Shown here piece by piece: positions 2 to 57,578 of a DNA stretch of 64,000 bases. A model generated the notes under the pieces. The model ran no database searches. It was not told the origin of the DNA and saw only the letters and a list, made by a program, of their open reading frames with translations. The position numbers were made by a program, and so were the translations under genes. The stretch is from NCBI GenBank assembly GCA_000146465.1, contig CP001944.1; one strand, given 5' to 3'. Each line of letters opens with the position of its first letter. The stretch's first letter is position 1.

Positions 2-499
2 AAGGGTTGTGTTGAGCTTGTTTCAAAGAGAATTGGGGGAGTCAGTGGAGATGCTCGAAAGGTAAGGGATGTGATTGAGAGGGTTAAAGAAAGTGAGAGG
101 GGGAGTGAGGCAGGGATATTAGATGTGGACGATATTATGAGAAAAATGTATGTTCCTGTATACACCTACTACCTTCAAAACCTGTCTTCTTATCAAAAAA
201 CCATTATATTTCTGGTTAGCGGAAGCGAGCAGGACAGAATGAAAACCAATGAACTTTACGATGAGTTTGTCTCTTTCTGCAGAAGATCTGGAATGAAAGA
301 AGTGGGGTTTTTTGAGTACTTGGATCTCCTCGAGGTGTTAGTGGACTACGGGCTCCTTGGAGTTAGGAGCTTGGGGAAAGAGATTCAATGTATGGTTCTG
401 CGGGAGGAGGTTGAAAAGAGCCTTGGGTCGGACAAGGAGTATCTGGAAATAACCGGGAGGGCGGGGAGTAGAAGATGTTTTTTGAAGAACTCTGGTTAA
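2..499 (+). CDS. Orc1/Cdc6-like AAA+ replication initiator, C-terminal part (5' end cut by window edge)
   Basis: Reading frame is open from nt 2. 'GDARKVRDVIERV' (Cdc6/Orc1 lid motif) is followed by a winged-helix-like C-terminus; stop at 497-499. Confidence 0.45.
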   Translation, partial: KGCVELVSKRIGGVSGDARKVRDVIERVKESERGSEAGILDVDDIMRKMYVPVYTYYLQNLSSYQKTIIFLVSGSEQDRMKTNELYDEFVSFCRRSGMKEVGFFEYLDLLEVLVDYGLLGVRSLGKEIQCMVLREEVEKSLGSDKEYLEITGRAGSRRCFLKNSG

Positions 500-524: not shown

Positions 525-1007
525 ATGGATCAAAAACTCAAGCACTTTCTTGACAACTCGAACTTCCGAAGAGACAGGAGAAACAAGAAAAAGAAAGTTG
601 AGACGTCTGGGGGAAAGAGAGAAGCAGGACAGGAGGAGATCTTGATGATTAAGAACGGGCAGATTGTTGTCAATGATGCAAACATGTATGTGGACACACA
701 TCGGGATGTGGAGATGGAGGTGATGGAAGACGACCGGATTGTGACATCCTCGACCTTTAGCAAGAAGAAAGGAGCACTAAGGTGGAGCAAAAAAGAGATA
801 GAGCTGTTTTATAAGGCGTTAGAAATCTGTGGGATTGAATTTTCATTAATAAGCTCCCTTTTTCCGAACAAGGAGAGAAAGCACATCAAAGCGAAGTACA
901 TAAAGGAAGCGAAGGTCAACCCCGAGAGGATCAACGAGGTACTGAACGAGTATAAAACATTTGATCAGGTGGCATACAACAAGCTCCGAAGCTATCTTCT
1001 TGAGTGA
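525..1007 (+). CDS. TFIIIB B-double-prime (Bdp1)-like SANT/Myb-domain protein
   Basis: 'RWSKKEIELFYKALEICGIEFSLISSLFPNKERKHIKAKYIKEAKVNP' matches the extended SANT domain of Bdp1; basic N-terminus; CCC motif before the ATG. Confidence 0.45.
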   Translation: MDQKLKHFLDNSNFRRDRRNKKKKVETSGGKREAGQEEILMIKNGQIVVNDANMYVDTHRDVEMEVMEDDRIVTSSTFSKKKGALRWSKKEIELFYKALEICGIEFSLISSLFPNKERKHIKAKYIKEAKVNPERINEVLNEYKTFDQVAYNKLRSYLLE

Positions 1008-1044: not shown

Positions 1045-1734
1045 TTAGAGTAACTTATCCTTGGCAGTTGATGAGTGGATCTTTGCATTGATGATCCTGG
1101 AGATCTGAAGGAACAGCTTGTAATAAGCAAAGACAAGTAAGGTTGCAGCAGCAACCAAGGCCATTCTCATCGATATCGACATATATCCTAGAAAAGGGTA
1201 CACCCAGGAGTTGTTGAGTCTTTGGAAGTAATGGATTACCATAAAGTAGACAAACCCAAAGATGGCAAAGGTCCAGTAATGTCTTCTTGCTCCATAGATA
1301 TTGACGCCTACTTGATCTATCAGAAGGAGAATAAATGGGAACAGATGGATGGACATCTCCGATATTAGCGGAGTCCTAACACCTGCCATATAAAGATCCT
1401 TATTCTTGAGAAGTGTCGGATCTATGGCATTAAGTGTCCAGAATACTGTTGTCACTAGTCCCTCCAGAGGAAGAGTAATGGAAAGAAAGTCTCTGTACAC
1501 CTCTTTAATTCTTGAGGCTCCAAAATGTTTTACGCAGTAACTTAGAGACAACGTCATTATTGTCATGTAAAGACTTATCTGGGTGATATAAATGTGGCTT
1601 CTTCCAGCAAGCTTGTCGATGAACTTCACCCACTCCTTTGGCTGGGAGTAGTCTGTTGCCCCGTAGATACAAAGTACGAAGAGGATTATCTTGAAGATTT
1701 CCTTTGAAGCCAAAAGACGGCTAGAACTTTCCAT
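1045..1734 (-). CDS. AIG1/FAR-17a family multi-pass membrane protein, tandem copy 1
   Basis: 'HLFPFILLLID' and 'WVYPFLGY' resemble the conserved AIG1/ADTRP motifs (TVLPFILIE ... WVYPFLE). ORF-track start at 1779 is TTG; first ATG (MESSS...) is at 1734 and gives 229 aa. Confidence 0.6.
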   Translation of the reverse strand: MESSSRLLASKEIFKIILFVLCIYGATDYSQPKEWVKFIDKLAGRSHIYITQISLYMTIMTLSLSYCVKHFGASRIKEVYRDFLSITLPLEGLVTTVFWTLNAIDPTLLKNKDLYMAGVRTPLISEMSIHLFPFILLLIDQVGVNIYGARRHYWTFAIFGFVYFMVIHYFQRLNNSWVYPFLGYMSISMRMALVAAATLLVFAYYKLFLQISRIINAKIHSSTAKDKLL

Positions 1735-1836
1735 AAGATTATGTGGCTTTGAAGGATAAAAAGAATCTAGGAGTAACAAACTTTTAATGTATCAATGAAA
1801 TGAGGAGATGTGATAATCAATGGGTCCCCGACCAAT

Positions 1837-2526
1837 TCAAAAGGATCTATTATCCTCTTTCACTGGCTCATACTTCCCATGAACCAAATCGTTAACTCCA
1901 AGAAGGCCTAAGTAACATCCAGTACCGATAAGACATGCCATAAAAATGAAGAGTATCCTCCCAATAGTGTTCATTTTCTTGAAAATTGGATAGGGCCACT
2001 TGCCATCTACCGTGTAGAAGTACCAGGTTTCTAGGAAGTATAGAATGCCGAATCCAAATACAAAGGAAATGCATCTCTTCCGTTTTTTTAGCCTCACATC
2101 TATTTGGCATATCAGTAGGAGGAGAAGAGGAAACAAATGCTGGGAGAGCTCTGTTAATAAGCTTTCCTGGATTCCCTCACTATAAAGTTTCCTACTTTTC
2201 AGGAGAGTTGGGTTAATGAAGTACAAAATCCAAAACAGTAAGGTCACTATGCCCTCTAAGGAGAAGGAAAGAGCCAGCAAGTCTTTGTAAGTGGTTTCCA
2301 AACTCTTTCCGACTTTGGTTCTTGTGAGATACCCGATAACTGTTGTAATGATGGTTAAATACAGCGATAGTACAGTAAGGTATACAAATTTTCCCCCAGA
2401 AGTTCGATTTATAGACTGAACTACTTGTTCCGGTAAGGCATAGTCCAACGTCCCGTACACACAAAAGCCCAGAAGTGTTACTTTCAATATCTCTTTTAGC
2501 ATCCTTTTTATCTTTTCCTTTTCCAT
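1837..2526 (-). CDS. AIG1/FAR-17a family multi-pass membrane protein, tandem copy 2
   Basis: Paralogue of the previous gene, with conserved blocks 'TLLKSRKLY...HLFPLLLLLICQ' and 'WPYPIF'. ORF-track start at 2655 is TTG; the ATG at 2526 is preceded by 'cgtcccctt' and also gives 229 aa. Confidence 0.6.
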   Translation of the reverse strand: MEKEKIKRMLKEILKVTLLGFCVYGTLDYALPEQVVQSINRTSGGKFVYLTVLSLYLTIITTVIGYLTRTKVGKSLETTYKDLLALSFSLEGIVTLLFWILYFINPTLLKSRKLYSEGIQESLLTELSQHLFPLLLLLICQIDVRLKKRKRCISFVFGFGILYFLETWYFYTVDGKWPYPIFKKMNTIGRILFIFMACLIGTGCYLGLLGVNDLVHGKYEPVKEDNRSF

Positions 2527-2685
2527 AAGGGGACGTTGTAAAACTCGAAAAATAATTAAAGCAAAGAGGGTGTGGGGATCTTTTTGTTTTGAATTTTGGA
2601 AGAGGGCGAGTAGGGATTCCTTTGGAGAGATGTTGATGGGGCCCGGATAAAACAATAAAAAAGAAGCCCTTCCAAACCTCTGGAA

Positions 2686-3156
2686 ATGTTAAAGATCTAT
2701 GAGGATATAATCAATGAGGTTATATCCAGGCTTGAGCATGCCGAGGACGAGGCCAGCATTAGTAAGTCTGCTATCCATGAACTCCGAAACGAGTGGAGGG
2801 AAAGGCTTATTGAGTACACACAAGGGGAATGGGACGAGGACAGGATTGTTCAGAGAGGCGGAGAACAGGGATATCGGCACGTAAGGCCTTCAGAAGGGTC
2901 TGGAAGTGTTTTTGGGGGGAATCCCACGATGGAGAAGGAGCCTGGGATGTTTGAGGACTACGAGAGCTTGAGCGGATCGAGTGGAGACTCGGAGATAATA
3001 GGAAAGAAGGTTACCGCTGGGAACTGTATGGTCTGTCTGTATGTGAAGGTCAACATGTCAAAGGGGAAGTGGAAGTGTACATTTAAGCAGGGTTTTATCA
3101 GCATAGGGAAGATAGACTTTGTGTTTAACTCCGCCCAGGGGGAGCTTGAGTGGTGA
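2686..3156 (+). CDS. TOA1: Transcription factor TFIIA large subunit (Toa1-like)
   Basis: N-terminal 'YEDIINEVISRL...ELRNEWRERL' matches the TFIIA-L four-helix region, and C-terminal 'CMVCLYVKV...KGKWKCTFKQGFISIGKIDFVFNSAQGELEW' matches the TFIIA-L beta-barrel signature. 'cctctggaaATG' start motif. Confidence 0.65.
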   Translation: MLKIYEDIINEVISRLEHAEDEASISKSAIHELRNEWRERLIEYTQGEWDEDRIVQRGGEQGYRHVRPSEGSGSVFGGNPTMEKEPGMFEDYESLSGSSGDSEIIGKKVTAGNCMVCLYVKVNMSKGKWKCTFKQGFISIGKIDFVFNSAQGELEW

Positions 3157-3220: not shown

Positions 3221-3232
3221 GCCCTGGAAATG
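3221..3232 (+). promoter_or_regulatory. Start-proximal CCC motif 'gccctggaaATG' (FEN1)
   Basis: Exact 'CCCTGGAA' directly abutting the initiator ATG; one member of a recurring set (see findings). Confidence 0.55.
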
Positions 3233-4267
3233 GGGATCAAGCAGTTATCCAAGCTCCTGAAAGAGAATTGTGCGAAAGGAATTAAAGAAAGGCCTTTGGC
3301 ATACTACTCGTCGAAGAGAATAGCAATTGACGCTTCGATGTCGATGTACCAGTTTCTGATAGCTGTTAGATCTGATGGATCATCACTGGGAAACGAAGAC
3401 TCCCCAACATCGCATCTTGTAGGATTTTTCTACAGGACTATCCGGATGGTGGAGCTAGGAATAATACCTGTGTATGTATTTGATGGAGTACCTCCCGAGG
3501 TTAAGATGAAGGAGCTAGAGAAAAGAAGCGAAAGAAGAGCAGCAGCTGATAAAGAGTACAAAGAGGCGTCTGAAATGGGGGACAAGAAGCTTATGGAGAT
3601 GTACGACAAGAGAAAGACAAAGGTGACTGGGATGCATGTTGAGGAGTGCAAGAGACTTCTTGGGCTGATGGGGATACCGTTTGAAACAGCACCCAGCGAG
3701 GCAGAGGCATACTGTGCTTTCCTATGCAAGAAGAAGGCTGTGTACGGTGTTGCAACAGAGGACATGGATGCTCTGACATTTGGGTCACCTGTGGTGTTGA
3801 GAAACTTCAGTGGCTCCCAGAGCAGAAAGCTTCCTATTGTAGAATACAACCTCCCGGAGCTATTGGAAAGCCTTTCCTTGGAGCACGAAGAGTTTATTGA
3901 CTTGTGCATTCTCCTCGGATGTGATTACTGTGGCACATTGAAAGGAATAGGGCCTAAGAGAGCACTGGGGTTGATTAAAAAGCATGGGGGCATTGAGAAG
4001 ATTCTCCAGAGCGAGAATTTGGAGGTTCCCGACGGCTGGAGATATAGGGATGCCCAGAGGATATTTGGAAGTCTTCCGGAAATTGGAGATGCAAGAGAGT
4101 TTAATATTTCATGGGGGTCGATAGACAGAAATGGGATTGTGAGCTTCCTTGTTGAAGAGAAGGGATTTGACTTGGAAAGAGTCAACAGAGGGATTGAAAA
4201 GCTTGTGAACTCTCGAAAGAAAGGGGTCCAAGGGCGTCTAGATGGGTTCATAGCAAGGAGCAGGTGA
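3230..4267 (+). CDS. FEN1: Flap endonuclease 1
   Basis: 'MGIKQLSKLL...IAIDASMSMYQFLIAVR...TSHLVGFFYRTIRMVELGIIPVYVFDG' is near-canonical FEN1/Rad27. 'gccctggaaATG' start motif. Confidence 0.9.
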   Translation: MGIKQLSKLLKENCAKGIKERPLAYYSSKRIAIDASMSMYQFLIAVRSDGSSLGNEDSPTSHLVGFFYRTIRMVELGIIPVYVFDGVPPEVKMKELEKRSERRAAADKEYKEASEMGDKKLMEMYDKRKTKVTGMHVEECKRLLGLMGIPFETAPSEAEAYCAFLCKKKAVYGVATEDMDALTFGSPVVLRNFSGSQSRKLPIVEYNLPELLESLSLEHEEFIDLCILLGCDYCGTLKGIGPKRALGLIKKHGGIEKILQSENLEVPDGWRYRDAQRIFGSLPEIGDAREFNISWGSIDRNGIVSFLVEEKGFDLERVNRGIEKLVNSRKKGVQGRLDGFIARSR

Positions 4268-4281
4268 GTCTTCTATGGCAG

Positions 4282-5133
4282 TTACAGGTTTTTATACATC
4301 AAGTTCCTCAGATACAATGGCCTACAACCAGACACGTGCTTTTTGAAGCTGGACATATCCACAAGTAGAACACCCTCCCTGTCTATGAGACCGAAGTCAA
4401 GAATGTCAAGGAAGTAAAATAGGATTTCCATGTTAGTTACTCCCCTGAGCTCGTTGGCATCTGATGTAAAGGCCCGAAACTCTGGCACACAGCTGATATA
4501 CTTTATTCTTCTTTTGAATGCCATCATTGTAAGGGCCACATGGACAGGGTTCAGTAAGGAGTATAGAGTTTCTATGGAGTATTCTGGAATGGAGTACTTT
4601 TTCAAGACTATTTTCTTCAACAGAACTGAAATGCTTGGATCGATATTGTATTGTCTCTGGATTTCTTCTTCATTGTCTGTGGCGGCAAGTTGCATATGCA
4701 GAGTTCTGTATAGCTCAAAAGGAAGAAAACCTGTGAAAAATATCCGGTGATTGAATCTTGACTTGATACGCCTTTCCAGTCTGTCCAGAGAAGTGCACGA
4801 GTTCGATACAAGAAGCAGGCAGCAGGGATGGGTCCTGGTCTTTTCAAGATAATGGTATACGTGCAGCTGACGGGAAATGGGCATTTCTCCCTCTATATCA
4901 ATAAAAAAAACCTTTCCGTCGGGACTTTCGTCTTTTGGAGTGGTTGGGAGGACTTTAACCACTGTTCTGCTTATCTTTTCTGCATGGCTCTTCACCACCC
5001 CAACGATTGCTTGAAGTATTTCTTGGTCTGGCCCACACAGGAGAAGATGCTCCCCATTTTTGTCAATCAGACGTGTTATCTCGCAGATGGTTTCCTTGAA
5101 GCACTCTCCGACAATCTTTGCTGTGCCATACAT
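4282..5133 (-). CDS. Origin recognition complex subunit 4-like (degenerate Walker A)
   Basis: 'VFFIDIEGEM' and 'LLLVSNSCTSLDRLERRIKSRFNHRIFF' match the ORC4 sensor region ([30 protein letters not shown]). The expected GKT P-loop reads 'LLLCGPDQEIL'. Confidence 0.45.
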   Translation of the reverse strand: MYGTAKIVGECFKETICEITRLIDKNGEHLLLCGPDQEILQAIVGVVKSHAEKISRTVVKVLPTTPKDESPDGKVFFIDIEGEMPISRQLHVYHYLEKTRTHPCCLLLVSNSCTSLDRLERRIKSRFNHRIFFTGFLPFELYRTLHMQLAATDNEEEIQRQYNIDPSISVLLKKIVLKKYSIPEYSIETLYSLLNPVHVALTMMAFKRRIKYISCVPEFRAFTSDANELRGVTNMEILFYFLDILDFGLIDREGVLLVDMSSFKKHVSGCRPLYLRNLMYKNL

Positions 5134-38024: not shown

Positions 38025-39566
38025 TTATTTGGGCTTTCCGGCGGGAGTAAGCGAAACATGTGTCCGAGAGTCTATTCTTTTTATCAAGGATTCGGCCAGG
38101 TCTCCGATCCTAACGTTTCTCATAAGTGCAGACTTCACTTCGTTTTCACACAGAATTTTGTTCTCAACAAGATACATTACTCCATCCTCCAATCCTTCAA
38201 AAGAATCCACTCTTTCCAAGGAATACTTTATCTCCTTAGGAATGTTGTATTTGATCGACATCAGGAAATATGCCTCCATCACATTTTGATCATACATAGA
38301 TGCCTTCTTGAGGCTAATAAGACCGTTCTTGATGTCCTGGAGCTGGATTCTGCACATGGCTAGGTTCCTCAGAAATACTGCATTTCTTTGATCATCGGCC
38401 ACCAGTCTTTCATATACTACTTCTGCTTCCGAAAACCTTTTGGCAGATGTAAGAGCAGATGCATATAAAAACTGTATTTCAGTATTCCATGGGACTATTT
38501 CAAGCGCCTTTTTAAAAGAAATTATTGCTTTTTCGGTGTCTCCGGCTTTAAGAAAGTAAACTCCTTTTGCTCTTAATGGTTCGTACGAGTGGTATATGCT
38601 GAGAGCCCTATCAAAATAATTCTCCTCTCCGGTTATGATCCCAAGAATTATGTTCATATTGCACAGTCTCACCTTTGACTCGTGGCTTGTGGGATCACCG
38701 ATACTTCTTACTTCCTCGAGAGCCCTTTCTACAGCCTCATCATTTCTATTAAGTTTTACTAGACAATTGATGATCTTTGTATTACACCTATATTTCTGAA
38801 AGTATACAAGAGCTTTTGAATATGCAGAGCAGTTGTAATAGGCATCACCTAGAAGCTTTTCCCACTCACTATGAAACACAAATGGGATTTCAAATATTGA
38901 GTCTGTTATTCTTTCATGGGTAAACTCCAAGTCGTATGGTTCTAGATTGAGCATCATGAGGTAATAGTGTGCTGTCATCTTCACTACTTCGCTTTTTTCA
39001 TTCCATGGAAACAGCACTCTGTCTATGTACGCTTGGACTTTCAACCTTCTGAGATCCGGGCAAATTTCCGTATTAAAGACCCTTATCATTTCCACCAAAA
39101 GTATAGACTGTTCTCCCACGCTTAGGCTCGGAACAATTTCGTTTTCAAACTTGTATTTTTCGGTGCTATAGACATGTTTCTTTTCGTTGCTTGTGCCATT
39201 ACATCTCACAATCAGTATGGAATTTCCATAAGCCCCTTCATTTGTAGGGACACATCCAACCAGTTCGTACCGGAAACCATACATAGAAAGATCAATTTTC
39301 TCGTATTCTTTAAACGACAGCATCATGCATGCTCTTTCCAAACCGCTCAATTCCCTAGGTATACAAAACGGCTGGGGATCCTTGAGACATAAGTTCATCA
39401 TATAGTTCAAGCGGCTCTTCTCAATTTCATTGGCTGGTTTAGCATTCTGCAGGAGATCTAGAAGTACAATTCCACTCTTGAAAGCTCCGGAATTCTCTAG
39501 ACTCGGCATTTCCGAACAGTAGGCCGAAAATACATTTGATGCAATAAACGTCCTTAAATCTTCCAT
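38025..39566 (-). CDS. TPR-repeat protein (possibly an APC/C TPR subunit)
   Basis: C-terminal tandem TPRs, e.g. 'EKAIISFKKALEIVPWNTEIQFLYASAL...AEVVYERLV'. The ORF-track start at 39614 is TTG; the ATG at 39566 is preceded by 'catccccgatatcta'. Confidence 0.5.
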   Translation of the reverse strand: MEDLRTFIASNVFSAYCSEMPSLENSGAFKSGIVLLDLLQNAKPANEIEKSRLNYMMNLCLKDPQPFCIPRELSGLERACMMLSFKEYEKIDLSMYGFRYELVGCVPTNEGAYGNSILIVRCNGTSNEKKHVYSTEKYKFENEIVPSLSVGEQSILLVEMIRVFNTEICPDLRRLKVQAYIDRVLFPWNEKSEVVKMTAHYYLMMLNLEPYDLEFTHERITDSIFEIPFVFHSEWEKLLGDAYYNCSAYSKALVYFQKYRCNTKIINCLVKLNRNDEAVERALEEVRSIGDPTSHESKVRLCNMNIILGIITGEENYFDRALSIYHSYEPLRAKGVYFLKAGDTEKAIISFKKALEIVPWNTEIQFLYASALTSAKRFSEAEVVYERLVADDQRNAVFLRNLAMCRIQLQDIKNGLISLKKASMYDQNVMEAYFLMSIKYNIPKEIKYSLERVDSFEGLEDGVMYLVENKILCENEVKSALMRNVRIGDLAESLIKRIDSRTHVSLTPAGKPK

Positions 39567-39636
39567 TAGATATCGGGGATGAAAAGACGTACAAAATAGA
39601 CATAAAGAGTCCAAAGCCCATATTTAATTCTAGGTC

Positions 39637-41673
39637 TTACTGGAAAGAGACGTCGGGCTCGTCAAGGAGAGAGAGAAGTTGTTTGATTGACATGGGCTCT
39701 TCGTAACATATGTCGGAGAAGCAAGGATTCTGATTGCATAAGATCTCATAATCGGGAAACCCAATTTTTTCAACTTCATATGAAGACTGGAAACATTCAT
39801 AGATACCACATTCCTTCATGACCTCAATCGAGCTTGTAGTACCAAACACAAACATCTTCTTTTTGCTCTCTTCCTTGATGAATATCTTCAGTGCTTGCAA
39901 TACGGCGTTACTAAACCTAGGTCCTATGTTTACAAAGTCAATAAGTCCTTCAATATCGTCCAGGATTACTATGGCCTCTTCAGACTTATATGCATCCATA
40001 AACTTCCCTTTTATATAGTTCACCTTCTCGTACTCGCTTAGTCCTATGATGTCTCTTGGCGAAATAATCTTTATAAACGGAAACATCGAAGATCTTGCTG
40101 CTTTCACAGCTAGCGTTGTTTTACCTGTTCCTGGAAATCCATGGAACAGCAGAGAAGATGTGGAGTAAAGATTTGTCTTTCTTAGCTTTTGAAGGAGATT
40201 CTTGCCATGTTCGATTCCCTGGGTGAATATAGGAGTCTCGTAAAAGGTCTTTTCGAATCTGTAGAAATCCTGCTCGTTTATCCCGAAGGAAGGCTTAACC
40301 TCATCGAGTGCTTGAATAAAGTCATTCATATAGACCTTGATATTCTTGTCTCCGACAACACTCATTCTTTCTTTATCGTCCTTCTCTCCATGGACCTTTC
40401 TCTCCAAAGCAAAGGAGACAGCACTCTTTACAACTGCTGTTATCTCCGCTCCTGTATAGTTTTTCGAAAGTTTGGCTATTTTGTTTAAGTCAACGCTTTT
40501 GTCCAGGTAGTCGTGGCTTTCCATCGTTTTTGTATGTATCCTAAAGATTTCAATTCTGGATTCTTCGTCAGGAAGGGAAATCTCCAGATGAATCTCAAAT
40601 CTCCCTGGCCTGAGTAGAGCCTCGTCAATCAGGTCCAGCCTATTAGTCATCCCGATAACCAGGATGTTTTCTATCGACTCCACTCCATCCATCTTACTAA
40701 GAAGTTGATTGACTACTTGGTCTCCAACTCCTGCTCCACTGCTGTTTCCTCTTCTTCTACAGATCGCGTCAATCTCATCGAATATTATGATATGAAGATT
40801 GCTGTCCTCCTTCTTTACTTTCCATTCCTCTTCAGCATCCTTAAACAAGTTCCTAATGTTTTCTTCGCTCTGCCCAACATATTTGTTGAGAATTTCCGGG
40901 CCATTTACTATCTTTGGTGGCCTGGCATTGAGAAGAGATCCAAGTTTCCTTGCAATTAATGTCTTTCCTGTCCCTGGAGGCCCGTACAGGATTATTCCCT
41001 TTACATGAGGTATTCCAAACTTTTTGATCACATCTGAGTCAAATGCCCTTTGTACAAATGCTCTCCTGAACATCTTTCCAAACTCCTGCTTTAGTCCTCC
41101 AATCCCAAGAGATTCAAAGTTGAAGTTTGGATCCAACAGCATGTTTTCTCTAGAGTTGTTTGACAAAACCAGCCTCTCCGAGACAGAGTTGATAAAAACT
41201 TCCGTGTTCTTCAGAAGAATTCCATACCTCTTATCCAGAGCAGTGAACATCTCCCGAACAAACACCTTAAATCCTAGGTCTCCAATGTACAAGTAAAACT
41301 TTTGATCGATGTTAAATGGAAAGGATACATAAATGTTCTTGAACTTCTCAACAAGCTCTTTTGCATCGAGATCAACCTTTTCCAGATTGATGATCTCTAT
41401 GTCGAGCTTTAAGAGAGAGATTGGATCGCATTCAACAACATTCAGGTGTTTGACACTTATCTCATCTTTCCCAACACTTTTGTTTAGAAATTCCCTTTGA
41501 ATCTTGCTCAGCTGGGCATTGCATCCATCGGTAAAGTCAAACTTAAAGGCATACTTACTGTCCACCAATATAAACTCTGAAGGATCTAGCCCAGATGTCC
41601 TTGGGATGTATATCTTATTTATTTTTCCCCTTTCCACCTGTTCAATCTTGATGCTCCCTACAACATATTTCAT
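39637..41673 (-). CDS. SEC18: Vesicle-fusing ATPase NSF/Sec18
   Basis: N-domain plus two AAA modules: D1 '[52 protein letters not shown]' (near-identical to NSF) and D2 'LLFHGFPGTGKTTLA'. Confidence 0.9.
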   Translation of the reverse strand: MKYVVGSIKIEQVERGKINKIYIPRTSGLDPSEFILVDSKYAFKFDFTDGCNAQLSKIQREFLNKSVGKDEISVKHLNVVECDPISLLKLDIEIINLEKVDLDAKELVEKFKNIYVSFPFNIDQKFYLYIGDLGFKVFVREMFTALDKRYGILLKNTEVFINSVSERLVLSNNSRENMLLDPNFNFESLGIGGLKQEFGKMFRRAFVQRAFDSDVIKKFGIPHVKGIILYGPPGTGKTLIARKLGSLLNARPPKIVNGPEILNKYVGQSEENIRNLFKDAEEEWKVKKEDSNLHIIIFDEIDAICRRRGNSSGAGVGDQVVNQLLSKMDGVESIENILVIGMTNRLDLIDEALLRPGRFEIHLEISLPDEESRIEIFRIHTKTMESHDYLDKSVDLNKIAKLSKNYTGAEITAVVKSAVSFALERKVHGEKDDKERMSVVGDKNIKVYMNDFIQALDEVKPSFGINEQDFYRFEKTFYETPIFTQGIEHGKNLLQKLRKTNLYSTSSLLFHGFPGTGKTTLAVKAARSSMFPFIKIISPRDIIGLSEYEKVNYIKGKFMDAYKSEEAIVILDDIEGLIDFVNIGPRFSNAVLQALKIFIKEESKKKMFVFGTTSSIEVMKECGIYECFQSSYEVEKIGFPDYEILCNQNPCFSDICYEEPMSIKQLLSLLDEPDVSFQ

Positions 41674-41736
41674 ACAATAGGGTCTGCCTCTCTCTGTTTA
41701 CAAAACAGCTTACAACATTGGCTTATTTCTCGGAAG

Positions 41737-43611
41737 TTAAAGATACAGAAAAATCAGGAAGGCCGGGCCCCCGATTAGAGTTAATAGAAACAGGATATCC
41801 ATTCCGTCCTTGCCATCGCATATTCCCTCTAATGCACATACACACCATTTTGGAGGCATCTCAGACCGGTTCTGCGGCCCTGCCTCTGTAATTTCCCGAA
41901 TAGATTCAACTACGGAGTCCTTGTCAGCACTCAACCAAAACAGAAAGGCTCTTTCGTTAACATAAATATCCACCATGTCTTTTCGCTCCGAAAACTCTAA
42001 CAGACCTGTAATGTTTTCCAAGAGCCTGCTCATCATCTTTATGTAGCTAAAAAACATACCTTTCTCAACCTTTCTTTTCGTCAAGTGATCGAAGTCGTCA
42101 TACACAAATAATATCTTGTTAAATAAGTTTGAGAACACAGACATCTTTGCATTAACTCTTGTGTCCATCATGGATTTGACGTACAGCCTTAAAATCTCTG
42201 CGATATATTCACTCTCTTTCAAGATAGCCCCTAGCTGGCTTTCAAGACCATTAGCCTTGGATACTACTTCAAGCCTTGTAACTCCTCCAATGTGCGTTGA
42301 CGTGAAGCTACATCCTTTGATAGACCCTGACTTGCAGCTTCTATCAAGCATTTGTCCATTGAGAAGGAACGGAACACTTGATAGAGTCACTACTATAAGG
42401 CCCACAGACACAATAGGCTTTAGAATGGAAGTGATGGCTTCAAGCCTTGCCAGGGCTGCAAGAAATAAAACCAGGCAGAGAACCATCTGGACTCCAAGAA
42501 AAAACATTATTTTGTTTTCGTATCGGATTACTGGACGTATGTCTCCGCCACCAGTGTTTTCGCTGTCTTGATAATTCCTTGCTAGCGTCGAAAGGTAGTT
42601 TAGAATCTCCTGGCTGGCCCTAGCATTTGGAAGATTAGAAAAATATTTCTTGATTTCCATCCTTAGCTCGTTTAAAGATATATTCAAATACCTTGTAGAA
42701 GCATTGAATTCAACCATTTCATCTTCAATTTTCTCTGCTTCCTTCATAAATAACTTAAACACGTTAGTAAACTCCTCTAGGATTCTCTCTACTTGTATTT
42801 CAATGTTCCTTAGATTCAAGACATGCCTCTTCAAATTTTCATCATTTTCTGCCTTGAACTGGAAAATTTTCATAAGATTCCCAAGAAAGACTTTTCTCTT
42901 TTCGCCATTTCCGGCATTTCTATTAATTGTTGACTGTCCTTGAGCCTTGAACACCATGGAAACCTGGTGGCCTCCCCCGGAAACACCTTCCGAGTAAGTC
43001 CTTTCTTTTACCGAAGATTTTTTTTCTACAGGAATGCTAGGACTTTTCCTCTCCAGAGTCGCAAGAGTGGTTTTTTTTCTGATATCTCGTCCCTTAGTGC
43101 TAGGATTTTCCTCTTTCTGTCTTTCTTCTTCTGTCCCAAGATTTTTATACAAAGCCAGATGAGATGCTGTAGATTCCTTTTCAGAGTGTCCCGTAAGGCT
43201 TATGTGAGAGAGAAGATTAGAAAGATGGCTCCTTTCAAAGGAATCCCTGAACTTAACTCGCCAAGGATTTCCCCATGCACTCCAGAACCATGTACTGGAA
43301 TTTGAGTTGGGCAGGGATTTACCAAGCATTCTATTAGCCTCTATGACCTTTTGCAGATTGTACGAGCAGAATATAAGGAGAAACCCAATGGTGTATAAAA
43401 GAACATTACCTCCATCTCTAGAGCTCCTGAAGAATATCAAAGCAAGGCCAAAGCACGTTATCAACAGTAGGAGAAACAGGTATATATCAAACCTTAAATT
43501 TGTTTTTGTCTCTTGAATGAACAACCGGAATGGGGATTGCTGAGGCGGCCTTAGCAAGGGTTCTTTAAGTATAAGAAGCCTTAGCCTAGATGCTAGAAAC
43601 ATTTCTCCCAT
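41737..43611 (-). CDS. Hypothetical membrane protein with a long coiled-coil region (624 aa)
   Basis: N-terminal TM helices, a central charged/coiled-coil segment and several C-terminal TM helices; no family recognised. Confidence 0.4.
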   Translation of the reverse strand: MGEMFLASRLRLLILKEPLLRPPQQSPFRLFIQETKTNLRFDIYLFLLLLITCFGLALIFFRSSRDGGNVLLYTIGFLLIFCSYNLQKVIEANRMLGKSLPNSNSSTWFWSAWGNPWRVKFRDSFERSHLSNLLSHISLTGHSEKESTASHLALYKNLGTEEERQKEENPSTKGRDIRKKTTLATLERKSPSIPVEKKSSVKERTYSEGVSGGGHQVSMVFKAQGQSTINRNAGNGEKRKVFLGNLMKIFQFKAENDENLKRHVLNLRNIEIQVERILEEFTNVFKLFMKEAEKIEDEMVEFNASTRYLNISLNELRMEIKKYFSNLPNARASQEILNYLSTLARNYQDSENTGGGDIRPVIRYENKIMFFLGVQMVLCLVLFLAALARLEAITSILKPIVSVGLIVVTLSSVPFLLNGQMLDRSCKSGSIKGCSFTSTHIGGVTRLEVVSKANGLESQLGAILKESEYIAEILRLYVKSMMDTRVNAKMSVFSNLFNKILFVYDDFDHLTKRKVEKGMFFSYIKMMSRLLENITGLLEFSERKDMVDIYVNERAFLFWLSADKDSVVESIREITEAGPQNRSEMPPKWCVCALEGICDGKDGMDILFLLTLIGGPAFLIFLYL

Positions 43612-43727
43612 CAGAACACATAGTTTTATCCTTCTCCTGAAGCACCTGTTTCATGAATCCGGTTGTATCATATCCCATCTAAGTCTTTCCAATTTTTAAG
43701 AATAAAAGAAAGGAAAACAAGAGGGGT

Positions 43728-44333
43728 ATGGACTCCGAATGTAAATACCTATTCAAGATAATCTTGATTGGGAATAGTGGAGTTGGAAAAACCTGCCTCA
43801 TGAAGAGATACACGGACGAGACATATAGCTTTACTCAATCCAGCACAATAGGTGTTGATTTCAAAATAAAGTCTCTTGAGGTTGAGGGGGAGAGAGTGAA
43901 GCTTCAGATATGGGATACGGCAGGACAGGAAAGATTCAGAGCAATTATATCCAATTATTATCGAGGAGCACATGGGATTATAATAGTGTTTGATATGGGA
44001 AGTAAGGAGTCGTTTAATAATCTCGGAGATTGGCTAAGTGAGGTTAGAAAGAATACAAATGAAAATGTTGAGATAATTATTCTGGGAAATAAGGTCGATG
44101 ATAAGGAAAAAATTGTGATTACTGAAGAAGAAATAGAAAGGTTTCTGGGGGAAAACAACATTGAAAAGTCGTCGTTTTATATGACAAGTGCAAAGGATAA
44201 CATTTGTGTCAACGATAGCTTTGAATATCTAACGAGAAAACTTATTGATAAATACAAGAAAATAGGTTTTGGCACTGGAAAGGAGTCTTTCAAGCTTAAT
44301 GTAGGAGATCCAAAAAAAACTTGTTGCCTGTGA
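43728..44333 (+). CDS. Rab-family small GTPase
   Basis: 'LFKIILIGNSGVGKTCL', 'TIGVDF', 'WDTAGQERFRAI', 'GNKVD' and a C-terminal 'CCL' prenylation site. Confidence 0.85.
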   Translation: MDSECKYLFKIILIGNSGVGKTCLMKRYTDETYSFTQSSTIGVDFKIKSLEVEGERVKLQIWDTAGQERFRAIISNYYRGAHGIIIVFDMGSKESFNNLGDWLSEVRKNTNENVEIIILGNKVDDKEKIVITEEEIERFLGENNIEKSSFYMTSAKDNICVNDSFEYLTRKLIDKYKKIGFGTGKESFKLNVGDPKKTCCL

Positions 44334-44354
44334 TTTAATTGATTAAAGCTCTTT

Positions 44355-45737
44355 TCAATTCACATTCCTCGAAGTTTTTATTCTTCTTAGATAATTGATG
44401 ATCTCCTCAGGTTCTGACGTTCTATTAAGGAGTTGATATACAACACTTTCCTCAATGTAGAATCCTGTATCGGACTTTGGGATTCCTAGAGTTTCAGCCA
44501 GACACCTTGTATCTATGATAGGCTTGACGAGATAGCACTCTCCAATTTCTTGTTGTATAATGCTGTACACAACTCTTAGTCCATCCTCATACTTTTCATG
44601 ATTGTCTTCAATGTATTCAATTGCAGAATATATCACTAACGATTCATACCATGTCTCCCCCATAAATCTCACTATCCTAATTAAGTCTTCATCTCCTATC
44701 TTCTTCATATCATATCCAGACAGAAAAACAAGACTCTCCTCGATCTTGTTTATCGTTTTGACAAATCTCCTAGAAGATGGAAGTGAAATCTTCATGATAT
44801 AAGCATTTGAGAACAGCAGACTTTTCCCATTTGGAACAGTCGATCTGCTAAAGAAGCATAACACAGTGTATAGATTTAAAATCTCCCTTCTGTATGTCCT
44901 TCCCCACAAATTTGTGATCTTTTCTACAGTCTCGCAAAACATTAGACCTTTTTCGTAAGGTGTCTCCCTTTCCACAGGTGGCTTAAACACAGGACTTACA
45001 TATCCTCTTCTAACTATCTCCAGGAGCCCGTACTGCCCTCTTGGATAGTGGAGAATTTTAAATATCTCTATGTGAATTCTTTCGTTGGAAACCTTCTTTC
45101 CAAGCGCTCTTTTGATTCTCTCGTCCATCAACGCCTCTTCGATCTTCCCGTCGATTTTGAATCCAAGCTTAGAATGAAATCTGAAGATTCTCACAAGCCT
45201 TAGAGGGTCATCAAAGAGGGTTGTCCTTGGATCTAGAGGTGTTATTAGAAGCTTGTTCTTTATGTCATCAATACCCCTCCCGGTGTAGTCTTCAACTTCC
45301 TTGGTAAACAGATTGTAGAATAGCGAGTTTATGGTTAGGTCTCTACGGAAAGCATCTTCCTGAGGAGTTCCCGGATTCACATTGGGAATCCTCGTTTCAG
45401 AATATGTTTCGTTCCTTAGATTTACAAAGTCAACACAGAATCCATTTATCCTTACAACTGCTGTTTCAAGATGCTTGGACTTTTCAGGGTTGTCCTTTAT
45501 CACATGGACTTCTGTGAGTTTCTGGCCTGTCGAGGATTTCATTAGTCCTGCTGCAAACTTGTATCCGCTAATATTTTCCAACGCTATATCCATGTCGAAG
45601 CTGGGATGGCCCATTATCTTATCTCTAACCCATCCTCCTGCAACTCTTGGAGTTACATTTCCAAACTCTTTGGCATGACTTCTTATTAGGTTGAAGATAT
45701 CCTCCTCGGCTTCTGTGCAATTTATCTGGACGCCCAT
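44355..45737 (-). CDS. CCA1: CCA tRNA nucleotidyltransferase
   Basis: 'PRVAGGWVRDKIMGHPSFDMDIALE' is the class II nucleotidyltransferase head motif; 'RDLTINSLFYNL'. Confidence 0.85.
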   Translation of the reverse strand: MGVQINCTEAEEDIFNLIRSHAKEFGNVTPRVAGGWVRDKIMGHPSFDMDIALENISGYKFAAGLMKSSTGQKLTEVHVIKDNPEKSKHLETAVVRINGFCVDFVNLRNETYSETRIPNVNPGTPQEDAFRRDLTINSLFYNLFTKEVEDYTGRGIDDIKNKLLITPLDPRTTLFDDPLRLVRIFRFHSKLGFKIDGKIEEALMDERIKRALGKKVSNERIHIEIFKILHYPRGQYGLLEIVRRGYVSPVFKPPVERETPYEKGLMFCETVEKITNLWGRTYRREILNLYTVLCFFSRSTVPNGKSLLFSNAYIMKISLPSSRRFVKTINKIEESLVFLSGYDMKKIGDEDLIRIVRFMGETWYESLVIYSAIEYIEDNHEKYEDGLRVVYSIIQQEIGECYLVKPIIDTRCLAETLGIPKSDTGFYIEESVVYQLLNRTSEPEEIINYLRRIKTSRNVN

Positions 45738-45819
45738 GAGGGACCAAACAAAACACCTTAAATACAGATCGACCTCGCTTCGAGAGAAACAAAGATCAAA
45801 AAGTCATGAGAGCCAACCA

Positions 45820-46728
45820 CTACAATCCAAGCCCCAATCTTCCTTCTTGGGACTCTTCAAACTTAATAAAGAAGAGAATTAGAAAGTAGATACTTAGGTG
45901 GAATAGCGTATCTTCGGCCCTCCAAATCCGCTCGAGTCCCGTAAAGCTCCTTAAGATGATAAAATAGATATAGTTTGATATCTTGGTTGTATTATATGCA
46001 ACTATCCCAAACCTCTGTATATAGTATGCGCTCAAGACCCTGAGTAGAAGAGAGGTGATCAAAAGAAGAATTGATTTGGAGGTGTTTTTTTCTATAAACA
46101 CATGGATATCATTGTATCTCAATCCAGAGTCGACCAATATAATAAACGAATATATCCAGATGTAAAATGAGCTTGCCAGGAGAAACTTTGGTAGTCCGCT
46201 TCGATTTGTCATACAAACCGTCATGAAGTCTGAAGAAACACTAAAGATTACATAAAGTGACAGGTAAATGATTCCAAAGAGAACGTCGAAGAATCCGTCA
46301 TTGCTATATTGAACAGATTTATACACATTCATTAGAACTACCAGAACAAAACTGAAATTCCTTAAGATATTCTCCTTAGCTGTTCTTGACAGCATGAACA
46401 TAAGCAGCACAGATAATGGATAGCATAGGCCCCTTGCAGCCATTGCTGTTTTCAAAGACGTCATTCCTGCGCCTCGATACCAAGAAGAATACTCTCCAAA
46501 TGCAAATAGTCCGAGCGGAAGATATTCTGGTTGTATTTGGACGGCTTCTTTGAAAGTGGTGTTTTTAATTGCAAACGGAACGGACATCATTAAAACAATG
46601 AGAGACGACAGAAAATTTTCTATGGTAAGTATCACCATAAAATGGGCCTCCAGATGGTCTGAGGATAAATATAGCTGGAGAGCCCCCAAGAGAGACAGAA
46701 TCTCTCCGATGTAGAGTTTCTTTTTCAT
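45820..46728 (-). CDS. Multi-pass membrane protein, possibly SLC35/TPT-like transporter
   Basis: 302 aa with about 8-10 hydrophobic helices. The size and topology resemble nucleotide-sugar/triose-phosphate transporters, but no diagnostic motif is confirmed. 'ccctttgccaaATG'. Confidence 0.35.
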   Translation of the reverse strand: MKKKLYIGEILSLLGALQLYLSSDHLEAHFMVILTIENFLSSLIVLMMSVPFAIKNTTFKEAVQIQPEYLPLGLFAFGEYSSWYRGAGMTSLKTAMAARGLCYPLSVLLMFMLSRTAKENILRNFSFVLVVLMNVYKSVQYSNDGFFDVLFGIIYLSLYVIFSVSSDFMTVCMTNRSGLPKFLLASSFYIWIYSFIILVDSGLRYNDIHVFIEKNTSKSILLLITSLLLRVLSAYYIQRFGIVAYNTTKISNYIYFIILRSFTGLERIWRAEDTLFHLSIYFLILFFIKFEESQEGRLGLGL

Positions 46729-47149
46729 TTGGCAAAGGGGTGAAGTTTGAATTTATGGATGAAGAAAAGGGGTGTTCTCCCGGATAGAGGAAAAACTTGT
46801 AGAGAGATAAGATATTGTTCCTAGGCAGAGAAGTGTCTAGGCATCACAATACATAGATGTTAATAACATCCTCGAAAAAAAGATTTTCAGGTGACACCGC
46901 GGAATACCTAAAAAGGAGATTTTATTGTGTATACGCCACAATAGAAAATAAATTGGATCAATTCTATATTAATCTGATAAAAAAGGGTATATTTAAAATA
47001 AATAGGGTATAAGTTTCATGGATTGTTTTAAGGAAAATCTTTAGAACGGATCTAACTATGTTATTTGTCGACCCAATTTTATCAATCAAATTCGAAACAA
47101 CAAACCTCCCTTCGATTTGGTTATAAAAGACTCAAAAATTTACCCCAAA

Positions 47150-47584
47150 ATGGCTAGAACAAAACAATCCGCTAGGAAAACAACAGGAGGAAAAGCCCCA
47201 CGCAAGCAGCTGTCTGCCAAGTCCGCCCGTAAGGCTGTGGCCCCCGCCTCAGGTGGTGGGGCCAAGAAGTCCAGGTACAGACCTGGATCTGTGGCCTTGA
47301 AGGAAATCAGGAGATACCAGAAGAGTACAGACTTCTTGATCCGAAGACTTCCTTTCCAGAGGGCTTGCCGTTCTGTGGTTAAGGAGTGTAGTAATACTAC
47401 AGACATAAGATTCCAGGGCCCGGCTCTTGGCTCAATTCAAGAGGCCTTGGAGGCCTATCTTGTTAGTTTGTTTGAAGATGCTATGCTCTGTGCATGCCAT
47501 GCAAAGAGAGTCACTGTATTTCCAAAAGACATAAGCCTTGTTCTGAAACTCAGAAGCAGACACGTCAAATCCATCAGTGATTAA
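47150..47584 (+). CDS. Histone H3 (divergent)
   Basis: Canonical tail '[28 protein letters not shown]' and '[30 protein letters not shown]'. A 2-aa insertion in loop 1 ('[13 protein letters not shown]') and a longer C-terminus. The ATG at 47150 is preceded by 'accccaaa'. Confidence 0.85.
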
Positions 47585-50304: not shown

Positions 50305-50667
50305 TTAGTTGATGTTGTTTTTTCTGTTCAACTCTTCTGTCTCTTCCTTTGTCAAGAACCTACCTGAGGGAGCTCTCAGCCTTTTCATAGCATGTTTATG
50401 TCTACTTTCATGCAAATAGTTTCTCTTGTTTGTTATCATAAGTGTATCTAGGATGTCTCTTCTTGACTTTCTTTTCTTAATCCAGTTGAGCTGCTTGGCA
50501 TTGACATAAAGAGGCTGAAAAGGTTGATCGCTGAACGGAAAAGAATAGTCATAAGCACCGTAGTTGCTTTTATCTGGATATCCTACATCTCTTAGTTGCT
50601 CGTCTTCAAAGCTGATGTCACCGTATCGGGTGTTTGGGCCCTGGTCCATAATGTCTCTGTGCTGCAT
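50305..50667 (-). CDS. HAP2: CCAAT-binding factor subunit NF-YA/Hap2
   Basis: 'QPLYVNAKQLNWIKKRKSRRDIL...RNYLHESRHKHAMKRLRAPSGRFL' is the canonical NF-YA subunit-interaction and DNA-binding core. Confidence 0.85.
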   Translation of the reverse strand: MQHRDIMDQGPNTRYGDISFEDEQLRDVGYPDKSNYGAYDYSFPFSDQPFQPLYVNAKQLNWIKKRKSRRDILDTLMITNKRNYLHESRHKHAMKRLRAPSGRFLTKEETEELNRKNNIN

Positions 50668-50855
50668 ACAACATCTATTCCGTCAAAACTTTTGTAAATC
50701 TTCCTCCTGACTTGTTTCAGGATGTTTGTTTCTTCCACCAATTGCATGGTGAGTTGGGATCGTTCGAGATGGCATCTCTACTCATCAACAATATATGCAA
50801 AGCTCAAAATAACTTTGGGATTTCTAGTCCAGTAAGGTTTGTAATAAGGTTCGTC

Positions 50856-51965
50856 TTATCTAATCTTTATTTCATCATCCCTCTCCCCATCCAACTCCCA
50901 AAAGTTTATGTTAGAATCAGAAGATCCAGATACAAAGTACTTTTCATCGTCGGAACAGGAAAAGTGGATCACTCTGTTCTTATGCCCCAAGAAGTATCTT
51001 TCTACCTTGAAAGAGGACATCTGTGACAGTCTGATGTCATCTTTTGAGTATCCGTGTGTACTCAGGATCTTGTTGGACTTCAACCATCTTAGATTACAAA
51101 TTTGAGAGCCATAGTCTACAGATCTTATCAAACACGAGCTTGATCTACTCGAGTTTACGAGATTCATGTCCCATAGCTTGATTGTTTTGTCTGCAGTTCC
51201 TCCACCAGACACCAACAGGTTTGGGGAAAGAGGGGACCAACTTATGGCCTTCACTGCGGCCTTGTGGCTGGAACATTGTTTAAGAGGATGGGATAAGTTC
51301 CTGTAATCATAAATATAAAGTCTATTGTCGTTCCCGCCGGATGCAAGAAACCTAAGGTCCTTGCTTATGCTTAATCCACAGACCTCCTGACGATGGTGTA
51401 GAATGGTTGCCACAGCCTTCTCCGAGCGAAGATCTGTTATCTTTATTTTTCTATCTCTGCTTCCAGTTATAATGTTTGCATTTTCCGACTCGATTACACC
51501 TATTCTTGATCTGTGGAATGAATACCTGGTTATCTTTAGAGAGGCTATATCAACATTCAACATGACACCGATAGAAGTCCCAAGGGCAACAGTGCTAGTG
51601 GTTGGGTTATATTTCACAGATGTTATTCCAAGACTGCTAAGATTACAAATCTGCAATGTCTTCGAGGAAAAGAAGTTGTGAACAAACAAACAGTTGTCTG
51701 CAGTGAAAAATACATTTTCTCCTGACCAGTCAATTAGACTGCTATAGAAGTCGTCGGGAAGGGATTTAACCTTCAATTGTCTATATGGCTGAATGATTAT
51801 TCTTGGCCCAAGGTTTTGGCTTCCAACAGTACTTAAATACGGAATTTCGCCCATGGAACAGGCAAACCTTGCCTCATACATTTCCTCTTTAGTTCCAAGA
51901 TCATAGAAGTTTCTTTGTGCATATCTGGAAGTAGTTTCCTTTTTGTTTATTAGGAATCTGTCCAT
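50856..51965 (-). CDS. CDC20: APC/C activator Cdc20/Cdh1 (Fizzy family WD40)
   Basis: 'LPDDFYSSLIDWS', 'SGGNDNRLYIYD', 'HKAAVKAISWSP...LLVSGGGTADKTIKLWD', 'THGYSKDDIRL' and 'GHKNRVIHFSCSDDEKYFVSGSSDSNINFWE' follow the Cdc20 blade pattern. Confidence 0.8.
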   Translation of the reverse strand: MDRFLINKKETTSRYAQRNFYDLGTKEEMYEARFACSMGEIPYLSTVGSQNLGPRIIIQPYRQLKVKSLPDDFYSSLIDWSGENVFFTADNCLFVHNFFSSKTLQICNLSSLGITSVKYNPTTSTVALGTSIGVMLNVDIASLKITRYSFHRSRIGVIESENANIITGSRDRKIKITDLRSEKAVATILHHRQEVCGLSISKDLRFLASGGNDNRLYIYDYRNLSHPLKQCSSHKAAVKAISWSPLSPNLLVSGGGTADKTIKLWDMNLVNSSRSSSCLIRSVDYGSQICNLRWLKSNKILSTHGYSKDDIRLSQMSSFKVERYFLGHKNRVIHFSCSDDEKYFVSGSSDSNINFWELDGERDDEIKIR

Positions 51966-52111
51966 CTATGTTTGTTTATGAAGACTTCCTCTCTCAGATA
52001 ATTTTTGGTGTGTTATTTGATCAAATAGAAATCAAGATGCTTTAGCATAATGAAAGAGATAATTTATCAAGTCCAGTAGTTTCAAACACAGAATCTAATA
52101 GAAGCTCCAGA

Positions 52112-55100: not shown

Positions 55101-55885
55101 CCCGAAAACTGGACTTGCCAGTCTTCATTGTCCAAAAATCTAAGCAGTTGCTCTATTATGTCATTTGGCCCTATTAAAGGATATATATATGACAGAAGAT
55201 ATGCAGCTGCATCTCTTACCGGTGCTACAGTTCTATCTTCCACAAAGTCATTGAATTTATCTGTGACAAGAATTTCATATATCTTTGAAAAGAGCTTAGA
55301 GTCAATTCTTATTTGAATTTCTCCTTCTCTTTTGTCTATTTCCGAAAACATTGCTGCAAATGCAAGAAATGCTCCATGTCTCTTATACCACTCATAACTC
55401 AGTAGATTATCACTTATTTGTTCAAAAAAGTCAAACACATTTTCAATCGGTTTCTCTTCCACCTTCTGTCTTTTGATGGTTTCCCCGCTTCCTGCCTTGA
55501 AGTCGATGTCGCTCAGGAAGTTTGTCTCCACATGCTCCAGCTTTGCTATCTTCTTAATCATTCTCTTCTGCTCCTGGACAGATGGTGCTTGTACATTGAA
55601 TTGCTCTCCTGTCGATCCCAAATATATGCTAGTGCCTTTCTTGTACTCAATCTTGAAATTAGTCACAAGCTTAAACTGGAACATCAGAGACTTGAGAATC
55701 CGGGCCCCATTTTTTCTATCCTCACTCCCCTGCCCACACAAGAGCCTGTATGTTTGCTTAAGAATATAAGGAGTGAAATCAACATACTCTTTTATTTGAG
55801 AAACCAGCTCATCCGTAGTATATTCCTTCAGAACTTTTGACTGGGCTGTGTTCAGTGTTGTGAAGAACTTTTCCAACCTATTCAT
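52112..55885 (-). CDS. MOT1: TBP-associated Snf2-family ATPase Mot1/BTAF1
   Basis: N-terminal HEAT repeats, then a Snf2 ATPase: 'LRDYQIEGVRWLNFLHSFSLNGILADDMGLGKTLQ', 'VVVDEGHVLRN', 'DWNPFNDLQAMDRAHRIGQKR'. 'accccaggaagtATG'. Confidence 0.9.
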   Translation of the reverse strand: MNRLEKFFTTLNTAQSKVLKEYTTDELVSQIKEYVDFTPYILKQTYRLLCGQGSEDRKNGARILKSLMFQFKLVTNFKIEYKKGTSIYLGSTGEQFNVQAPSVQEQKRMIKKIAKLEHVETNFLSDIDFKAGSGETIKRQKVEEKPIENVFDFFEQISDNLLSYEWYKRHGAFLAFAAMFSEIDKREGEIQIRIDSKLFSKIYEILVTDKFNDFVEDRTVAPVRDAAAYLLSYIYPLIGPNDIIEQLLRFLDNEDWQVQFSGLIALGYLKEFVEDKNGLCKKLVSLLSSPDEDIKLLSAELLCHFSIIDGIDTVLDKCWQNIESEEVISVSKTSNLSLLTKIYRENPEFSIPPERLKDIFPCFTSPVPEVRTSILNMVENLSEESIDFLVAEVVLIEEKEEIRKLAIKILKKRKDLPRNLIIHFMNVIGGSLYEPYREDDFVSYEDLYFTKSGINVIGKDEILKNRCLLFECIMKNEFPDLQTGNETMIDRTFLALYRSAQELHKGGTPMSGSIEELGDYFGKCKDLRMAPQKEFKKKLSNPEIHSIHPMVDPLYIDYVRMIASIEFPSLCNAPALFEVETCIQFLDLFSKMIVEYYDAKKISVDNFLQVAYERLSSGRNGFLRFFEGFDGRFLDHPFFLQVGSLENRLDFFSKTVHIYTKASQIQKIAFIFDDALQERNITVINGFMKSLEFNEKFVRKALENLDVELLDAVLMNGDHSFNPLFVRPLLKNISSDVNRKTSSRLFSKIIPTLGFRTNEKISKDLLEVIENEKKSLDSLLDVRKIPEYHIKCPILVKLRDYQIEGVRWLNFLHSFSLNGILADDMGLGKTLQVLTFLCSEIYKTKKKILVICPSSLTGHWKAEVKKFFPFVTAEIYRRENRGEYGILISSYETFRNDYLSFIEKDWFYVVVDEGHVLRNKHTILYSRMNMIKCSRKIVLTGTPVHNSVEDLVSLFNFLMPNYIGSEKEYGSLNVKMSDTEIEKTQEKLNLLHKKVLPFILRRLKIDVLKDLPPKIIRDIIVDLGPAQEKLYREINERGGKEKLEDVDLEYGKIDQKNVGFKRTRDLLLAVSHMSHFKDSSEVSCKVKALEDIISLCGGEDLRSKILIFFQFKSSIDFVIKDIMEKYKFKYSRLDGSVPSSTRAKIAEEFNTGTTQILFLTTQVGGLGLNLTGADTVVMYEHDWNPFNDLQAMDRAHRIGQKRTVNVFRLIAKNTLEEKVMNLQSFKMFVANSLVSQQNADIETMDTKDLLERFQVLG

Positions 55886-56460: not shown

Positions 56461-56466
56461 AAGCAT

Positions 56467-57459: not shown

Positions 57460-57578
57460 TTAGGGCACCAACAAATTGGTTTACATATCATAGAATTTAA
57501 TCGACCCGAAACAACAAAAATCAAAGTAGGTATGCGCTTATATGTCTTTAATTACTAGAATTTATGGGGAGGCTTTCT

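Follow-up and report, generated by a model that had tools for sequence, protein, structure and literature searches.

We analysed a 64,000-nt stretch of contig CP001944.1 (GenBank assembly GCA_000146465.1), referred to here in its full length as the window, from the microsporidian parasite Encephalitozoon intestinalis ATCC 50506; the contig measures 217 kb, and its locus tags place it on chromosome III. Two neighbouring minus-strand genes in this window, Eint_030940 (paralogue A) and Eint_030950 (paralogue B), encode proteins of the Far-17a/AIG1 family (Table 1), and in an exact-sequence look-up their translations matched ADM11238.1 and ADM11239.1, respectively, perfectly. The existence of a tandem AIG1-family pair is thus confirmed. 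An earlier note on this DNA, made from the letters alone, had placed two adjoining minus-strand paralogues of 229 amino acids (aa) at 1045-2655. The six-frame list of open reading frames (ORFs) and the exact matches bear out the adjoining pair, whereas position 2655 is only an ORF limit: counted from the first TTG, the ORFs run from 1045 to 1779 and from 1837 to 2655, but the start codon of Eint_030950 lies at 2526. The sequence blocks that the note had quoted as AIG1/ADTRP-like were found as described: Eint_030940 contains HLFPFILLLID and WVYPFLGY, and Eint_030950 contains HLFPLLLLLICQ and WPYPIF. Its view that the genes are clearly diverged and no recent duplicate held as well.

The two proteins share 34% identity over 226 aa (BLASTP, E=6e-45), and blastn revealed no nucleotide similarity between the two genes (best E 0.2); Eint_030940 and Eint_030950 are therefore true, old paralogues. 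A recent duplication or gene conversion is ruled out by the same two results together with the occurrence of both lineages in Ordospora. The equal length of the two proteins carries no meaning either and is a coincidence, because orthologues vary in length, with 226-237 aa in lineage A and 222-268 aa in lineage B. A tblastn search of the window yielded no further family copy. The spacer between the genes must carry the 3′ end signals of Eint_030950 as well as the promoter and 5′ end of Eint_030940, and it is too short to hold the relic of a middle copy.

To establish family membership, we compared both proteins with the Pfam profile PF04750 (Far-17a_AIG1), the gathering cut-off of which is 24.5 bits. 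Eint_030940 scored 91.3 bits (E=7.7e-26, residues 15-210) and Eint_030950 scored 141 bits (E=4.7e-41, residues 14-212), both far above the cut-off and with matches that span profile positions 3-205 of 206. Aligning a microsporidian-only profile with human AIG1 in hhalign gave a probability of 97.5% (E=6.7e-12), and neither protein matched PF14808, even at E<=10. The assignment itself is not new, as UniRef already names both proteins “FAR-17a/AIG1-like protein”; because of these names, and because the family and its mechanism are known, we count the finding as already known. Human AIG1 (NP_057192.2; Q9NVV5, 238 aa) and ADTRP (NP_116133.1; Q96IZ2, 230 aa) belong to the same Pfam family and are similar in length to the 229-aa proteins described here, with which they have in common a core of six transmembrane (TM) helices, a Thr at the start of TM2, a His in TM4, an FW motif in TM3 and a W-x-Y-P motif before TM6. 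Overall identity to the human proteins is only 19-21%, and the androgen or TFPI context of the latter is not applicable to the E. intestinalis pair.

The catalytic residues of the human enzymes are T43 and H134 in AIG1 and T47 and H131 in ADTRP (PMC8123165), and we checked these positions on the sequences, which an exact look-up had confirmed. Thr51 was paired with AIG1 T43 and ADTRP T47 by MAFFT, by a broad-family hidden Markov model (HMM; HMMER) and by hhalign alike, and its column in the MAFFT alignment was invariant in 18/18 sequences, including both human ones. A broad family alignment of 140 sequences, in which the 16 orthologues were joined by 124 representatives that a scan of 1.84 billion proteins had supplied, had Thr at this position in 135 sequences and His at the position of His130 in 139, the latter residue being invariant in all 16 aligned orthologues. 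The broad-family HMM put His130 opposite AIG1 H134 and ADTRP H131. The distance from this His to the conserved Pro of TM4 differs between groups, with H-x-x-P in the microsporidian proteins and nearly all representatives and H-x-x-x-x-P in vertebrate AIG1/ADTRP, and because the vertebrate proteins carry two extra residues between His and Pro (HTTVLP vs HLFP), standard aligners mis-register the catalytic His between vertebrate and other members. When AIG1 was compared by phmmer with an HxxP-type representative (P0183), the His residues were paired (NHSIHTLP vs NHGMHTTVLP), and the same was observed with a further representative (P0167); in the AIG1-like representative P0093, the His is present and the Pro is absent. 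Predicted structural models (see below) show a helix break around the His at residues 129-131 in Eint_030940 and 130-132 in Eint_030950, and on these models an indel of two residues at the break (residues ~129-132) is plausible. We conclude from the alignments that both copies keep the predicted Thr/His dyad, with a two-residue caveat on the register of the His.

Glu91, which lies in an L-E-G motif of TM3, is kept in 111/140 sequences of the broad alignment and in every microsporidian A, B and middle copy, whereas human AIG1 has Gly and human ADTRP has Ser in its place. Outside vertebrates, this Glu may serve as a third residue of the active site. TMEM164, a protein discussed in the next paragraph, requires E106 and G155 close to its active site.

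AlphaFold2 (AF2) models of both proteins were built from the 16-sequence alignment and reached a predicted local distance difference test (pLDDT) value of 88.8 with a predicted template modelling (pTM) score of 0.85 and a pLDDT of 87.4 with a pTM of 0.83. Long helices at residues ~2-26, 50-67, 72-104, 123-141, 150-174 and 187-217 recur in both models, a matching pattern that indicates a common predicted topology with a six-TM helical core in either protein. The only strong match of both models to a solved structure was human TMEM164 (PDB 9lw1), pointing to a similar fold. One Foldseek search with the models returned nothing significant, searching the PDB by sequence, whether one protein or a profile of 44 sequences was used, produced no match, and no AIG1/ADTRP structure appears to have been deposited. 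TMEM164 is a C20:4 phosphatidylcholine-dependent ether-lipid acyltransferase with 10-11% identity and no sequence-level match to the pair; it differs in its Cys nucleophile, its seven TM helices, its dimeric state and a reported metal site (PMC12830759), and it belongs to PF14808 and not to PF04750. The E. intestinalis proteins have Thr at the nucleophile position, and their relation to TMEM164 is at the superfamily level only. TMEM164 and AIG1/ADTRP have been united in one “ATGY” superfamily, which is characterized by a variable nucleophile in TM2 and an invariant His in TM4 (bioRxiv 10.1101/2022.07.06.498872). Cryo-electron microscopy of TMEM164 captured an acyl-Cys123 intermediate (PMC12830759), in keeping with proteins of this fold working through a covalent acyl-enzyme; because the fold is common to transacylases, the microsporidian chemistry could be that of a hydrolase or of a transacylase.

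Orthologues of A and B were found in E. cuniculi, E. hellem, Ordospora colligata and further assemblies, and an orthologue of B was found in E. romaleae; the orthologues of these four species fall into the same A and B lineages with about 50-72% identity and differing lengths. In total, 36 alignment positions are identical across both lineages, including T51, T58, E91, F98, W99, H130, P133, Y163, Y179 and R190, and eight positions are fixed differently (A/B: H47/F, M57/L, S65/G, P89/S, P122/S, H152/C, V201/G and S212/N). Judged from outgroups, each copy carries derived states, such as H47 and S65 in A or S89 and C152 in B. In 21/21 species pairs compared, conservation was lower for copy B than for copy A, for example 0.52 for B and 0.64 for A between E. 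intestinalis and E. hellem. These asymmetric rates and fixed differences fit a functional divergence with both copies under selection, and sub-functionalisation of A and B appears plausible from the sequence comparison.

The gene order TFIIA, B, A, Myb, Cdc6-like is found in Ordospora and at a locus from the Logan assemblies (L003), and the E. intestinalis window agrees with it. A bootstrapped neighbour-joining (NJ) tree recovered an A clade (77%, including one fragment sequence) and a B clade (83%), and together with the shared synteny it dates the duplication, which the earlier note had suggested placing by phylogeny, to before the split of Encephalitozoon and Ordospora. The number of copies varies among relatives: one Logan locus (L008) carries three full-length genes in tandem and another (L002) carries a fragmentary middle copy between B and A (Table 1). 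In the NJ tree, the L008 middle copy is the sister of B (54%). An M24 peptidase gene adjoins the array in both of these species and is not found there in E. intestinalis or Ordospora. A single copy was present at the locus examined in Vairimorpha apis, Hamiltosporidium tvaerminnensis and Pancytospora philotis, the last of which was the sole new name obtained in a homologue search with profile A4 (9 matches among 8000 candidates scored), and tblastn detected no relic of a second copy at the V. apis (E<=1) and Pancytospora loci. A 14-3-3 gene lies near the V. apis and Hamiltosporidium genes, and the same neighbour is found by the array in Ordospora and at L003. Most economically, one or two tandem duplications took place in the Encephalitozoon/Ordospora lineage and were followed by loss of the middle copy. 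Rather than a singular retained duplicate, the pair seems to be what is left of a tandem array of two to three copies that varies among relatives. Because the deep NJ nodes are weak, the duplication may instead be older, with a subsequent loss in Vairimorpha.

Two of the single-copy species showed peculiarities at these loci. The Pancytospora philotis contig JALRLY010000255.1 contains the segment with the PF04750 gene twice, at 38761-47501 (L004) and 50343-59083 (L005). The copies lie ~11.6 kb apart, the genes called in them correspond, and a gag-pol retrotransposon ORF (RVT_1, rve) directly adjoins one of the two; either a segmental duplication or an artefact of assembly may account for the repeat. 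In Hamiltosporidium tvaerminnensis, the 686-nt gene range (L009:4001-4686 and L010:4001-4686) does not translate directly into the 220-aa protein, which points to a gene model that contains an intron or a frameshift.

Within the window, the pair is flanked by a convergent gene with a Myb_DNA-bind_7 domain and a divergent TFIIA gene. Because only 37 bp (1008-1044) separate the stop codons of the Myb_DNA-bind_7 gene and Eint_030940, these two genes probably meet or overlap at their 3′ ends. On the divergent side, 159 bp lie between the start codons of Eint_030950 and the TFIIA gene, and both gaps are typical of the usual Encephalitozoon compaction. At E<=0.001, Pfam gave no match for the 283-aa ORF beside the FEN1/XPG gene. 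Ordospora, L002 and L003 have ORFs of 276-296 aa at the syntenic position, likewise without a Pfam match; the ORF encodes a protein that is conserved but matches no Pfam family.

Table 1. Coordinates of the Far-17a/AIG1 pair, its predicted active-site codons, neighbouring genes and related arrays (positions refer to the window unless a locus is given)
Feature	Position	Strand	Description
Eint_030940 coding sequence	1045..1734	-	A paralogue, Far-17a/AIG1 family; 690 nt from first ATG, 229 aa plus stop
Eint_030950 coding sequence	1837..2526	-	B paralogue, Far-17a/AIG1 family; 690 nt from first ATG, 229 aa plus stop
Spacer Eint_030950/Eint_030940	1735..1836	-	102 bp
Thr51 codon, Eint_030940	1582..1584	-	ACC; predicted acyl-accepting nucleophile, start of TM2
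His130 codon, Eint_030940	1345..1347	-	CAT; predicted general base, TM4 kink
Thr51 codon, Eint_030950	2374..2376	-	ACT; predicted nucleophile
His130 codon, Eint_030950	2137..2139	-	CAT; predicted general base
Glu91 codon, Eint_030940	1462-1464		
Glu91 codon, Eint_030950	2254-2256		
Cdc6 C-terminal domain gene	71-499		
Myb_DNA-bind_7 gene	525-1007	+	
TFIIA gene	2686-3156		ATG at 2686, divergent from Eint_030950
FEN1/XPG gene	3230-4267		
283-aa ORF beside FEN1	4282-5133	-	
Three-copy array (Logan SRR29713750)	L008:3290-5382		three full-length tandem PF04750 genes of 220, 215 and 226 aa, each with the conserved Thr and His
Array with middle-copy fragment (Logan DRR353006)	L002:2763-4696		B, 111-aa C-terminal fragment of the middle copy, and A

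Taking the sequence comparisons together, we consider it likely that Eint_030940 and Eint_030950 are old, functional paralogues of the AIG1/ADTRP (PF04750) type, that is, six-TM Thr/His ester hydrolases that were duplicated in tandem in the Encephalitozoon/Ordospora lineage. The interpretation given in the earlier note is supported in the membership in PF04750, the catalytic Thr, the catalytic His with its two-residue caveat and the topology shared by the two copies; the checks suggested there all turned out in its favour, and neither of the outcomes named there as refuting was observed. The sub-functionalisation proposed in the note is plausible. From the homology with AIG1/ADTRP and the solved TMEM164 acyl-enzyme structure, we infer a mechanism in which His130 in TM4 would activate Thr51 at the start of TM2. 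Thr51 would then attack the ester bond of a membrane lipid, and the resulting acyl-Thr intermediate could be resolved by water, as in a hydrolase, or by a lipid acceptor, as in a transacylase. The active site would be an intramembrane cavity that is open to the bilayer. Both surviving copies are probably under purifying selection, A evolving more slowly and being more ancestral-like and B evolving faster, and the two may partially divide their labour on host-derived lipids by acting on different substrates, in different compartments or at different life stages.

Several points weigh against this reading. MAFFT and hhalign, which anchor on the Pro, set His130 two residues off human H134, and the equivalence of the His residues depends on the two-residue indel at the TM4 helix break. 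Support at the deep nodes of the NJ tree is low, not only for the A and B clades at the values given above but also for the grouping that unites every array copy and leaves out V. apis (38%). We know of no report of hydroxy fatty acids esterified with fatty acids (FAHFAs) from microsporidia. Literature searches turned up no biochemical, expression or localisation data on microsporidian or fungal members; those for AIG1 in microsporidia returned only unrelated Entamoeba AIG1 GTPases, and those for FAR-17a in Encephalitozoon returned only a generic HMM-library paper. FAHFA hydrolysis has been demonstrated for the vertebrate AIG1/ADTRP enzymes only (PMC8123165).

Both proteins could instead be coenzyme A-independent transacylases or acyltransferases, like TMEM164 and GPC1, whose acyl-Thr would move chains between host-scavenged phospholipids and lysolipids. 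Such an activity would suit a parasite without de novo fatty-acid synthesis, but we regard it as rather unlikely: the proteins belong to PF04750 with a Thr nucleophile and not to PF14808 or PF10998 with a Cys, the PF04750 members with a measured activity are all hydrolases, and no acceptor-binding feature was identified. By analogy with the TMEM164 dimer, it is conceivable, if improbable, that A and B are not redundant hydrolases but pair up as a heterodimeric Thr/His(/Glu) transacylase, which would remodel phospholipids scavenged from the host and whose donor versus acceptor specificity would be tuned by fixed differences. The tuning sites would be H47 (A)/F47 (B), near the nucleophile, and H152 (A)/C152 (B), ancestrally His. 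If true, the heterodimer would be a parallel to the TMEM164 dimer and would constitute a parasite-specific lipid-remodelling step.

The lower conservation of B in every species pair and the reduction of the L002 middle copy to its C-terminal half, which shows that array copies can decay, would also agree with only one working copy, the other, likeliest Eint_030950, decaying or non-catalytic and retained either by chance or for a regulatory or structural role as a partner. That is very improbable, given that T51, H130, E91, P133, Y179 and a full-length ORF were kept in 9/9 B-lineage sequences examined and that the Pfam model gives B a higher score than A (141 vs 91 bits); because the decayed copy in L002 survives only as a half, two intact copies argue for selection. 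The notion that the proteins lack any enzymatic role and instead serve structure or transport in the membrane, having only the AIG1 fold in common with the family, draws on the absence from the literature of a measured activity for any non-vertebrate member. We give it hardly any credence, because the conservation of Thr and His, the most conserved positions of the family at the frequencies given above, is hard to explain without catalysis.

Like the E. intestinalis pair, Saccharomyces cerevisiae YHR140W is uncharacterised; it is presumably a single copy in yeast and not a tandem pair. YHR140W (P38842) is cited by Reed et al. as the AIG1-family member of fungi that has the Thr/His dyad.

As a genome feature, the pair is an ordinary, automatically annotated family member, to which our analysis adds minor new details, namely the variable array of two to three copies, the asymmetric rates, the difference in His-Pro register and a TM3 Glu that is absent from the human enzymes. 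A compact parasite with diverged paralogues would be a tidy system for finding the substrate of the non-vertebrate branch, which includes YHR140W. Microsporidia have lost fatty-acid synthesis and most of lipid metabolism and live on host lipids. That a genome of ~2.3 Mb retains two AIG1-type intramembrane lipid enzymes with predicted activity, and that relatives have up to three, suggests that the turnover or remodelling of ester lipids matters to the parasite.
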